From assembly GCA_017445905.1 (NCBI GenBank), contig JAFSRX010000013.1:15815-79814 (forward strand): a stretch of 64,000 bases of DNA, given 5' to 3'. This document shows, piece after piece, positions 1 to 28,632 of this stretch; the stretch's first letter is position 1; each line of letters opens with the position of its first letter. Origin of the DNA: Eubacterium sp. (GTDB lineage: Bacteria > Bacillota > Clostridia > Oscillospirales > Acutalibacteraceae). Below the pieces are notes generated by a model that saw only the letters and a program-made list of their open reading frames with translations, was not told where the DNA came from and did not search any database. Both the position numbers and the translations under genes were made by a program.

Positions 1-99
1 AAAAATATCAAGTTTTAAATCAACAAAAAGTGCAACAACAAGTGCAGCGGCTGAGAATAAATAGAAAAAGATTATTTCATTTTTATACTTCTTTAACAT
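1..99 (-). CDS. 5' fragment of a membrane protein running off the window start (MLKKYKNEIIFFYLFSAAALVVALFVDLKLDIF...)
   Basis: ATG at 99 on the minus strand behind an AGGTGA RBS; open for 33 codons to the window edge; hydrophobic N-terminus. Not in the ORF track. Confidence 0.6.
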   Translation of the reverse strand, partial: MLKKYKNEIIFFYLFSAAALVVALFVDLKLDIF

Positions 100-23899: not shown

Positions 23900-24610
23900 A
23901 TGATTAAAGAAGCAATAAAGAAGCTTTCTTTTGCCGTTTTTCCAAGGAGATGTGAACTCTGCGGCGAGGTAACAGAGCTTGATGAAGCACGCTGTGAGGA
24001 ATGCAGAAAGCTTAAAAGAATTGAAGGCGAGCTATGCAGAAAATGCGGAATTCCAAAGGATATATGCAGCTGCAAAAATAAAAGGAAAAAATCTGAATAC
24101 AAAGCCTTTATTGCGCCGTTTTATTATGAAAACAGTATTTCTGCAGGAGCAAACAGATTTAAAGACTATGGCTATCCCGAGCTTGCAAAAGCAATGGGAA
24201 AAGAAATGAGCGAGCATATAGAGGATTATTTCGGCGATGTTGAGTTTGATTTTATAACCTTTGTTCCGATGACTAAGAAAAAACAGAACAAGAGGGGATA
24301 TAATCAATCAGAGCTGCTTGCAAATGAGATATCCGAGATTTTGGATATTCCAGTTCTTGCGCTTCTCGATAAGGTTATAAGCACCCGCGACCAGAAAAAG
24401 AAAAGCGCCCGTCAAAGAGCGGTTAATCTTCGGGGAGCGTTTGACCTTAAAGAAGATGCCAATGTTGATGATAAAACTATTCTTTTAGTTGATGATATAA
24501 GAACAACGGGCGCAACGCTTAACGAGTGTTCATATGTTTTAAATGCATACGGCGCTAAAGCAGTTTATGCAACAACCTTTTGTATGACAAAAAAACACTT
24601 GAAAAAGTAA
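23900..24610 (+). CDS. comFC: ComF family protein (zinc ribbon plus PRTase-like domain)
   Basis: Paired CxxC motifs, RGYNQSELL, LLVDDIRTTGATL. Confidence 0.88.
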   Translation: MIKEAIKKLSFAVFPRRCELCGEVTELDEARCEECRKLKRIEGELCRKCGIPKDICSCKNKRKKSEYKAFIAPFYYENSISAGANRFKDYGYPELAKAMGKEMSEHIEDYFGDVEFDFITFVPMTKKKQNKRGYNQSELLANEISEILDIPVLALLDKVISTRDQKKKSARQRAVNLRGAFDLKEDANVDDKTILLVDDIRTTGATLNECSYVLNAYGAKAVYATTFCMTKKHLKK

Positions 24611-24641
24611 TAATAAAATGATAGAATATCAAAGCAAAGAA

Positions 24642-24895
24642 AGTTTCGCGTTTCGTTGTGTTCACAGCACAGTAATTAAACAAAACTAAATATGCGAGTA
24701 TGGCGGAATTGGCAGCATCGTCGCCGAAGCGCTCGCAGTGCGAGATAAAGCGAGGCGGGAATGGCGCAGCGGTCAAAATTCATCGGCGCACCAAGCCGGA
24801 ATGAATTTTGGGCACCGCAAGAGTCTCGCGTGTCGTTGTGTTCACAGCACAGTAATTAAACAAAACTAAATATGCGAGTATGGCGGAATTGGCAG
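24642..24895 (+). repeat. 74-bp direct repeat (tRNA leader plus first 22 nt of tRNA-Leu) around a 106-bp structured insert
   Basis: 24642-24715 equals 24822-24895 except for 2 mismatches; unique GC-rich insert at 24716-24821. Confidence 0.9.
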
Positions 24896-24958
24896 ACGCG
24901 CTAGATTTAGGATCTAGTATCTCCCGATGTGCAGGTTCAAGTCCTGTTACTCGCACCA
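24874..24958 (+). tRNA. trnL: tRNA-Leu (anticodon UAG)
   Basis: Acceptor stem GCGAGTA/TACTCGC plus ACCA, D-arm GGCGGAATTGGCAGACGC, anticodon arm CTAGA-TTTAGGA-TCTAG, long variable arm, GGTTCAAGTCC T-arm. Confidence 0.97.
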
Positions 24959-24960
24959 TT

Positions 24961-24993
24961 AAACAAAGGATACCGTTGCGGTATCCTTTGTTT
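24961..24993. terminator. Bidirectional terminator after tRNA-Leu
   Basis: Perfect 15-bp stem aaacaaaggataccg/cggtatcctttgttt. Confidence 0.9.
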
Positions 24994-25000
24994 AATATTT

Positions 25001-28510: not shown

Positions 28511-28632
28511 AATTCGGAATGCGGAATGCGAAATGCGGAATTAGCGGATACTCACTTAGTTCGGACAATTAATTATAAGAGGCGTGCGCAACACCATATA
28601 ACTCCGAATTCCGAACTCTGAATTCATAATAA
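28511..28632 (+). repeat. Complete heptamer-armed mini-element (E4)
   Basis: Left arm aattcgg-aatgcgg-aatgcga-aatgcgg-aatt, conserved core, complementary right arm aactccg-aattccg-aactctg-aattcat. Confidence 0.7.

Follow-up and report, generated by a model that had tools for sequence, protein, structure and literature searches.

Known elements that integrate into tRNA genes are 5–100 kb in length and nearly always duplicate the 3′ end of the tRNA, and the 5′ end and the anticodon loop are rarely used by known integrases. Fragments of tRNA genes left by tRNA-targeting integrative insertions were reportedly described by Reiter in 1989 and by Williams in 2002. Such fragments are well known (PMC9897764). 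In the literature searched, tRNA fragments stem from kilobase-scale insertions only, and neither there nor in Rfam was a description found of the family of roughly 110-nt elements that is dealt with here.

The locus lies in a stretch of 64,000 nt from an assembly of Eubacterium sp.; the whole stretch is referred to as the window. It is arranged as a promoter, a leader with nt 1–22 of tRNA-Leu, an insert named E, a second leader with the intact tRNA, and a terminator (Table 1). A reading made from the sequence alone had noticed that a segment made up of 52 nt of leader and the opening 22 nt of a tRNA occurs twice, 180 nt apart, and that the first copy breaks off in the D-loop and runs into a 106-nt insert. 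Both observations were borne out: a repeat finder returned a direct repeat of 74 nt, identical at 72 of 74 positions, with starts 180 nt apart; the tRNA start given by ARAGORN and Rfam divides each copy into 52 nt of leader and tRNA nt 1–22; and in copy 1 the tRNA stops where the D-loop ends (...GGAATTGGCAG), after which the insert begins. A repeat of 74 nt with 97% identity cannot have arisen by chance. The 106-nt insert contains no ORF. The intact tRNA-Leu(UAG) is the sole gene found for its anticodon in the assembly, where all but three anticodons have a single gene. No second promoter is predicted before repeat copy 2, the upstream one being the only sigma-70-like promoter of the locus, and thus tRNA-Leu would have to be transcribed through E. 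The predicted transcript would carry a leader of about 240 nt extending through E, from which, according to established knowledge, RNase P would free the tRNA.

Table 1. Features of the tRNA-Leu(UAG) locus, in positions of the window.
Feature	Position	Strand	Remarks
comF-like phosphoribosyltransferase gene	23900–24610	+	Upstream; anchor for the orthologous-locus comparison, outside the element
Predicted sigma-70-like promoter	24599–24627	+	TTGAAA-17-TAGAAT with TG; upstream of repeat copy 1
Repeat copy 1, attL-like	24642–24715	+	Leader 24642–24693 and displaced tRNA-Leu nt 1–22 (24694–24715)
Element E, 106-nt insert	24716–24821	+	Covariance-model match 24712–24823, 111 bits
Helix P1	24716–24763	+	24716–24725 paired with 24754–24763, internal loop; encloses P2
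Helix P2	24729–24751	+	24732–24736/24740–24744, GT-containing triloop; two closing pairs, 24729–24730/24750–24751
Helix P3, long hairpin	24769–24818	+	Invariant base GCGGUCAAAAU...AUUUUGGGCACCGC, 3-nt bulge, variable tip
Conserved 3′ tail AAGAG	24819–24823	+	Last 2 nt are the start of repeat copy 2
Repeat copy 2, attR-like	24822–24895	+	Second leader 24822–24873 and first 22 nt of the intact tRNA
Intact tRNA-Leu(UAG)	24874–24958	+	ARAGORN; 58 bits against Rfam tRNA
Intrinsic terminator after the tRNA	24958–24996	+	18-bp stem and T run; only good terminator of the locus

E is a member of a protein-less family of about 112 nt with three helices, in which P1 closes a junction holding P2 and is followed by P3. 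The fold was tested on 108 distinct sequences aligned to the covariance model, together with 500 shuffles. Pairs form in 88% of the cells, compared with 72% in shuffles and 36–46% when the partners are slid by 1–3 columns, and double-sided changes occur at 24 of the 32 pairs (563 cells); none of the 500 shuffles reached the observed values. All 10 pairs of P1 show double-sided changes across the family. P2 is 99% paired, with covariation at six of its seven pairs and with conserved flanking strands, GA(A/G)CGC and GAUGAAGCGA-like. Invariant unpaired motifs are also present in the alignment. The two stems that had been picked out from the letters, CTCGC-AGT-GCGAG (24732–24744) and the long hairpin, are both real and conserved. 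The insert of the window folds better than its shuffles (z −2.6 as RNA and −3.1 as DNA), and since single-sequence MFE folds of the tRNA fragment with E were mutually inconsistent, covariation was relied on for the structure. Among about 2960 paired cells there are 37 G-U and 25 A-C, which amounts to 1.2% G-U with no strand asymmetry (p = 0.16), whereas the tRNA acceptor stems at the same loci contain 4% G-U with a G-U:A-C ratio of 3.6:1, a contrast that is borderline (p = 0.06) and comes from an alignment biased towards the model. A fold that is equally good on both strands is expected of folded single-stranded DNA more than of RNA, which suggests that E is recognised as folded single-stranded DNA instead of RNA.

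Searches with a covariance model built from 18 copies of E (R1) found matches in 46 of 61 genomes of the genus, with 1–35 copies each, in 51 of 151 genomes of the order (33 of 97 genera) and in 42 of 250 genomes of the class, including families outside the order. A pattern scan of named genomes gave at least 120 MAG contigs with E, and the matches listed include Acutalibacteraceae, Oscillospiraceae, Faecalibacterium, Faecousia, Oscillibacter and rumen 'Eubacterium' MAGs. E is an element of gut and rumen Clostridia, mostly Oscillospirales. In the same genome, relatives are found beside tRNA-Ser(CGA) on contig 25 and on contig 57, and others occur in many congeners; the proposal that the insert be looked for at other tRNA genes and in related genomes has therefore led to hundreds of covarying homologs. 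The same pattern was found in 20 viral contigs of IMG/VR. INPHARED phages and PLSDB plasmids gave no match to E, a metagenome pattern scan with the promoter region returned only unrelated loci, and Rfam 15, searched at permissive thresholds with the window and other subtypes, returned tRNA only, the best match on the element itself being noise (15.8 bits, E = 3.1). One congener, G003, has 41 matches, many of them 98–100% identical over 126 nt, indicating a recent burst. Many copies of E stand at contig ends, and E can hold nested inserts, such as one of about 270 nt in G003.

Several surroundings of E may be recorded here in their own right. In IMG/VR (L225–L244), several related contigs have E about 480 nt upstream of a terminase-large-subunit-like gene and about 240 nt behind a portal-like gene, some with two E copies per contig. 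At L079–L086 (G003; G000:C57:7178-7291), an E of type C lies between tandem heptamer arrays, (ATTACGA)n, and other heptamer/hairpin modules. In G003, a unit 'ATTACGAAT-TAC-E-GAG-ATTACGAAT' recurs at 98–100% identity. The window itself contains at 28511–28632 a heptamer-armed mini-element (CGGAATG-type on the left, AACTCCG/AATTCCG on the right) of a family distinct from E.

A tRNA gene lies within 400 nt of E in 43 of 147 copies (29%), compared with the roughly 1–2% that would be expected by chance from some 30–50 tRNA genes per 2 Mb, and in 42 of these 43 copies E and the tRNA are on the same strand (p = 1e-11). The orientation of E relative to neighbouring protein genes is random. Most copies, including the G003 burst, are far from tRNA genes. 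When E lies upstream of a tRNA, a duplicate of the 5′ end of this tRNA stands immediately before E (Ser nt 1–18; Leu 1–22, for all four isoacceptors seen; Pro 1–21..27 or 1–37) and brings 0–58 nt of leader. When E lies downstream, a 3′ copy running from nt ~41–49 to CCA, sometimes with the terminator, is found within 2–20 nt, and several of these 3′ fragments stop precisely with CCA or with the T-run of the terminator. Junctions of the 5′ type were counted in 39 copies and of the 3′ type in 30.

At some loci tRNA sequence flanks E on both sides: Ser(CGA) nt 1–18, E and 20–32/41/76; Asn 21–39, E and 42–59; Pro 25–37, E and 41–76; Trp 32–49, E and 52–76. The tRNA coordinates are contiguous across E, running from 18 to 20 in Ser, 39 to 42 in Asn, 37 to 41 in Pro and 49 to 52 in Trp. 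In at least 10 tRNA species, the breakpoints lie where the gene encodes the D-loop, the anticodon loop or the variable loop/T-stem. At one locus (L210) the order is an intact tRNA-Ser, a terminator, nt 8–18, E, nt 20–89 and a terminator. The interrupted copy is never complete, and an intact gene adjoins it in most, not all, loci. A tRNA intron was considered and rejected, no interrupted tRNA being complete: the copies are partial, for example nt 1–18 and 20–41, or 8–18 and 20–89, around E. Some outer ends carry inverted tRNA pieces that form palindromes. At many tRNAs the DNA between the repeats is repeatedly E alone, about 106–190 nt. The length of the flanking repeats varies across the family from 0 to 83 nt, and junctions shift by several nt. 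The sequence-only reading had proposed a miniature element that targets the 5′ halves of tRNAs and leaves a long duplication or an attL/attR relic. The miniature element itself is supported in outline by the homologs, the covariation, the attL/attR-like repeat and the empty sites described below; a classical target duplication of fixed length does not agree with duplications that range from 18 to 83 nt; and specificity for 5′ halves fails, as 3′ parts and anticodon-loop breakpoints are abutted equally and most copies are away from tRNAs.

What happens at one and the same site in different species can be followed at the comF–tRNA-Leu(TAG) locus, for which the loci of congeners were compared with ComF as the anchor. 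In seven congeners (G011, G017, G016, G075, G064, G054 and G002) the site is empty: the comF gap is 56–73 nt, and tRNA-Leu(UAG) follows its promoter after a leader of 7–25 nt. The host therefore does not need E. In five to six genomes the site is occupied by E or related inserts. The gap holds E in the present genome (G000), an E whose 5′ two-thirds is swapped for other hairpin modules in G018, another insert, F, which shares the GCAAGAG tail of E, in G003, and F followed by E, two units in tandem, in G045. G051 also has E, with an extra gene between comF and the tRNA, a gap of about 1.3 kb and altered synteny. The three successive tRNA 5′ pieces of G045 are three alleles (GCACCTGTGGCG, GCGGGTATGGTGG.., GCGGGTATGGCGG...), the first two of which equal those of other species. 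In G051 the leader beside E is unlike the native leader behind the promoter and resembles the E-side leaders of G000, G003, G018 and G045 as well as the native leader of the empty G016. Such mosaics of alleles and leaders would be expected if the resident tRNA gene recombined with an incoming 'E + leader + tRNA piece', as we infer from the comparison of sequences.

Other inserts were met at or near the same kind of site. The insert F combines a long, AT-rich hairpin with two others, GATGCGGTACAAGTATCCGCATC and CAAATCAAAA/TTTTGATTTG; it occurs at the same 5′ site of tRNA-Leu(TAG), after tRNA nt 12 and with the tail noted above, and is also nested in one E copy (F loci: L037 in G003:C34, 445–575; L296 in G045; L250 in G003:C12, 220–520; L252 at G000:C42:11800-12000). 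A third mini-element of about 85 nt (...AGCTCCGGTGGAGCTTTCGATAGTTGAGAAGAAA) lies downstream of tRNA-Leu(TAG) at L036 and L037, abutting a duplicated T-loop-to-CCA fragment; in the genome of the window (C1:131000-131220, L087) it stands after an E of type C that follows tRNA-Leu(GAG), and its other end bears an antisense T-loop piece. Also in this genome (C32:4200-4900, L251), tRNA-Leu(CAG) is preceded by a duplicated promoter, a leader of about 80 nt and tRNA nt 1–38, the duplicate breaks off in the anticodon loop, and a different insert, of about 130 nt, comes next; L017, from another family of the order, is similar. When the empty G016 locus (L292) is set beside the units L286, L288 and L296, the E-side leader, T(C/A)(T/C)CGCGTGTCG.., starts a few nt from the predicted transcription start. 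That duplications begin at the transcription start was tried as a rule and dropped: it holds for tRNA-Leu units and is not general, and foreign flanks explain the starts equally.

These observations are, on balance, probably best explained by E being non-autonomous mobile DNA that colonises tRNA genes, with the direct repeat at our locus being attL/attR-like and the tRNA being made by read-through. The burst in G003, the many copies at contig ends and the nested inserts agree with mobility as well. E would insert, or persist, where tRNA genes encode loops, reading in the same direction as the tRNA. Because these small genomes mostly have one gene per anticodon, plain interruption would be harmful, and survival only where the intact gene is kept would leave a truncated, E-plugged tRNA copy beside an intact one. 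Such a pair could arise if an interrupted allele recombined inside the tRNA sequence with an intact one, on sister or incoming DNA. 'E + leader + tRNA 5′ part' would then behave as a miniature integrative cassette that may be passed between species and whose integration would regenerate the gene. As E encodes nothing, the enzyme would act in trans.

Several points weigh against mobility. A unit of about 180 bp would have to circularise or recombine through a similarity of only 18–70 nt; E has no terminal inverted repeats (its ends are GG..CG and ..GCAAGAG), and neither its duplications nor its junctions are fixed; none of the three assemblies of the species differs from the others by excision or insertion; and E is predicted to be transcribed in the window. 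At tRNA-Ser(CGA) loci, which are vertically inherited, E is about 94% identical across species and the adjacent spacers are unalignable, which would also fit an RNA function for the host. In addition, the search for a mover found neither a transposase or recombinase tied to E nor an autonomous element with E ends. Clustering of all ORFs within 3 kb of 147 copies revealed no shared gene and no conserved integrase. Gene counts of the IS200-type Y1 transposase (PF01797) do not follow E copy number, and the RAYT-like genes are flanked by hairpins other than E. The IS91-type/Y2 search (PF04986) detected nothing, its control also having found nothing anywhere. Among 21 genomes of the genus no small or E-adjacent GIY-YIG gene (PF01541) was detected; the matches are mostly of UvrC length (about 590–630 aa), and the shortest frames are 298–494 aa, some of them probably from cut assemblies. 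Large serine recombinases lie near E in two viral contigs only. No autonomous element with E ends kilobases apart was seen in G003, where partial matches are contig ends or the nested insert, and 147 loci and 20 viral contigs likewise showed no such element with shared att sites close to E. An inverted pair of E copies (L201) encloses a pst operon and no transposase. As a side observation, the genome of the window has two RAYT-like Y1 genes (C42:28.0-28.9 kb and C65:3.4-4.2 kb; 249 and 248 aa) with REP-like hairpins of their own, GGTACAGGGGACGGTTCTCTGTACC and TTGGGGACAGTCCCCAA.

Could E instead be a functional structured RNA, expressed from tRNA promoters or by read-through? It might then act as a small RNA derived from the leader, as a module for processing or stability, or as a decoy that binds protein, with the tRNA fragments giving promoters, processing sites or stable ends. 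The strong covariation with invariant unpaired motifs, the sense orientation with tRNAs and the position of E in the predicted leader behind the only promoter are all in keeping with this, as is the conservation of E at tRNA-Ser(CGA), where one species (L045) duplicates the promoter ahead of the tRNA fragment. However, no Rfam family matched, self-cleaving ribozymes included; G-U is as rare as A-C mismatches; orientation is random with respect to protein genes; many copies stand behind strong terminators without a promoter, as in L210; and a burst of near-identical copies, nested insertions and an orthologous site that is empty in seven congeners are hard to reconcile with such a role. We consider it unlikely. 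The more specific forms that had been suggested from the sequence fare no better. A structured leader RNA gets no help from pairs that lack the RNA wobble signature or from the random orientation, the ribozyme has no Rfam counterpart, and the RNase P decoy has neither a T-arm nor a partner for the acceptor on the 3′ side, and the 5-bp GCGAG/CTCGC pairing is missing in other tRNA-Leu copies; an RNase P substrate mimic with an acceptor-stem/T-arm minihelix was rejected on the same grounds, namely that no T-arm follows E and that this pairing is unconserved. A little less likely again is that E is itself immobile, a conserved att-adjacent arm of larger tRNA-integrating elements (phages, ICEs, islands); our locus would then be what a deletion left behind, or an attL-E-attR stub of the CIME type. 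Direct repeats of a partial tRNA with a regenerated intact tRNA are the classic signature of an integrase, the D-, anticodon and T-arms, in which the breakpoints lie, naturally offer symmetric core sites, and E in 20 viral contigs and the tandem accretion in G045 would follow naturally. Yet none of the 147 loci has a conserved integrase or shared gene beside E, only E is found between the repeats at many tRNAs, and most copies are far from tRNAs; moreover, as the same E occurs at 5′ parts, 3′ parts and anticodon-loop breakpoints, several integrase specificities would be needed.

An RNA-mediated origin, in which E is a template for reverse transcriptase, switches template with loop-cut (pre-)tRNA fragments and enters the tRNA locus by recombination of the cDNA, would account for junctions at the loops where tRNAs are typically cleaved (D-, anticodon and variable), for the tRNA-Leu leader carried by the element, which starts close to the transcription start predicted for the empty G016 locus, and for 3′ fragments that stop exactly at CCA or the T-run. 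Identity that ends at mature tRNA ends is equally expected of units that come from other species, since conservation between species is limited to the tRNA, and some duplications include the promoter (L045), which together with the missing RNA-type wobble makes this origin improbable. Finally, an assembly artefact or a chance local tandem duplication with no element involved might be feared in a short-read MAG assembly, and one Logan contig does end within repeat copy 1, as is expected for a repeat. Two independent ENA assemblies from other samples, with an identical ComF protein, contain the same 391 nt running from comF through to the terminator, one with no mismatch and the other with 1, and the arrangement is therefore not an assembly artefact. 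The same architecture recurs at other tRNAs and in hundreds of genomes, and this explanation can practically be dismissed. The sequence-only reading had itself reckoned with an artefact, or with an insert lacking homologs and covariation; two further assemblies, hundreds of homologs and covariation were found instead.

Returning to E as non-autonomous mobile DNA, one may tentatively go further and suppose that E and its sister families at these loci form an undescribed mobile class that is defined by a fold, not by a gene, splits essential single-copy tRNA genes at loops, and survives by travelling with a replacement piece of the same tRNA or by provoking the duplication of such a piece. Such a class would be moved by an enzyme specific for structured single-stranded DNA, or through RNA and reverse transcription. 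That E will turn out to be a new class once the mechanism is known is a real possibility. If E is the mobile element that it seems to be, an element of about 110 nt without genes colonises the tRNA genes of abundant gut and rumen Clostridia, reshapes their promoters, leaders and trailers, leaves tRNA pseudo-fragments behind and carries foreign tRNA alleles between species. The role of tRNA genes as integration sites would thereby be extended from kilobase islands to the smallest scale, and to the 5′ end and the anticodon loop. The case would also point to an activity in recombination or transposition that is supplied in trans and for which a conserved three-helix fold is the recognised feature. 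In practical terms, the family breaks short-read assemblies, its tRNA fragments are open to miscalling by annotation tools, and the covariance model can be used to annotate several hundred loci.

Compared with tRNA-integrating elements and CIMEs, E shares the direct repeat of a partial and an intact tRNA with the gene regenerated on insertion, tandem accretion at one tRNA and a tRNA segment that may be of a foreign allele. Unlike those elements of 5–100 kb, our locus has about 106 nt between the repeats, no integrase, and a duplicated 5′ end (nt 1–22 with leader); one E family serves D-loop, anticodon-loop and T-region breakpoints, and most of its copies are at non-tRNA sites. With MITEs, REP/REPIN, BOX, RUP, Correia and Rickettsia palindromic elements E has in common a length of about 100 nt, the absence of coding capacity and a strong fold, as well as a copy number ranging from 0 to 35+ between relatives with near-identical copies in one genome, nested insertions and intergenic repeat mosaics. 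Unlike MITEs, E has neither terminal inverted repeats nor a short fixed target duplication, nor was an autonomous IS with the same ends found; unlike REP/REPIN–RAYT, the RAYT-like genes of G000 are flanked by other hairpins and not by E; and none of these repeats has the covarying three-helix fold, the invariant unpaired motifs and the sense-strand tie to tRNA gene loops. As for systems that act on single-stranded DNA, the E consensus GCGGTCAAAAT...ATTTTGGGCACCGC differs from integron attC in lacking R/L boxes (RYYYAAC...GTTRRRY), and E has no cassette arrays and no integron integrase context; its hairpins P2 and P3 differ, whereas IS608 and PATE ends are alike; and IS200/IS605 have a constant 4–5-nt target, whereas the left flanks of E vary (..GTGG, ..GGCAG, ..TTAC, ..CGA). 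Nevertheless, P3 resembles attC in being a hairpin with a conserved base, bulged bases and a variable tip, and E, like attC and the IS200/IS605 derivatives (PATEs), conserves its structure under free sequence change with almost no G-T pairs. If E is so read, it would also share with these systems a function on a folded single strand and orientation-specific insertion without classical duplication.
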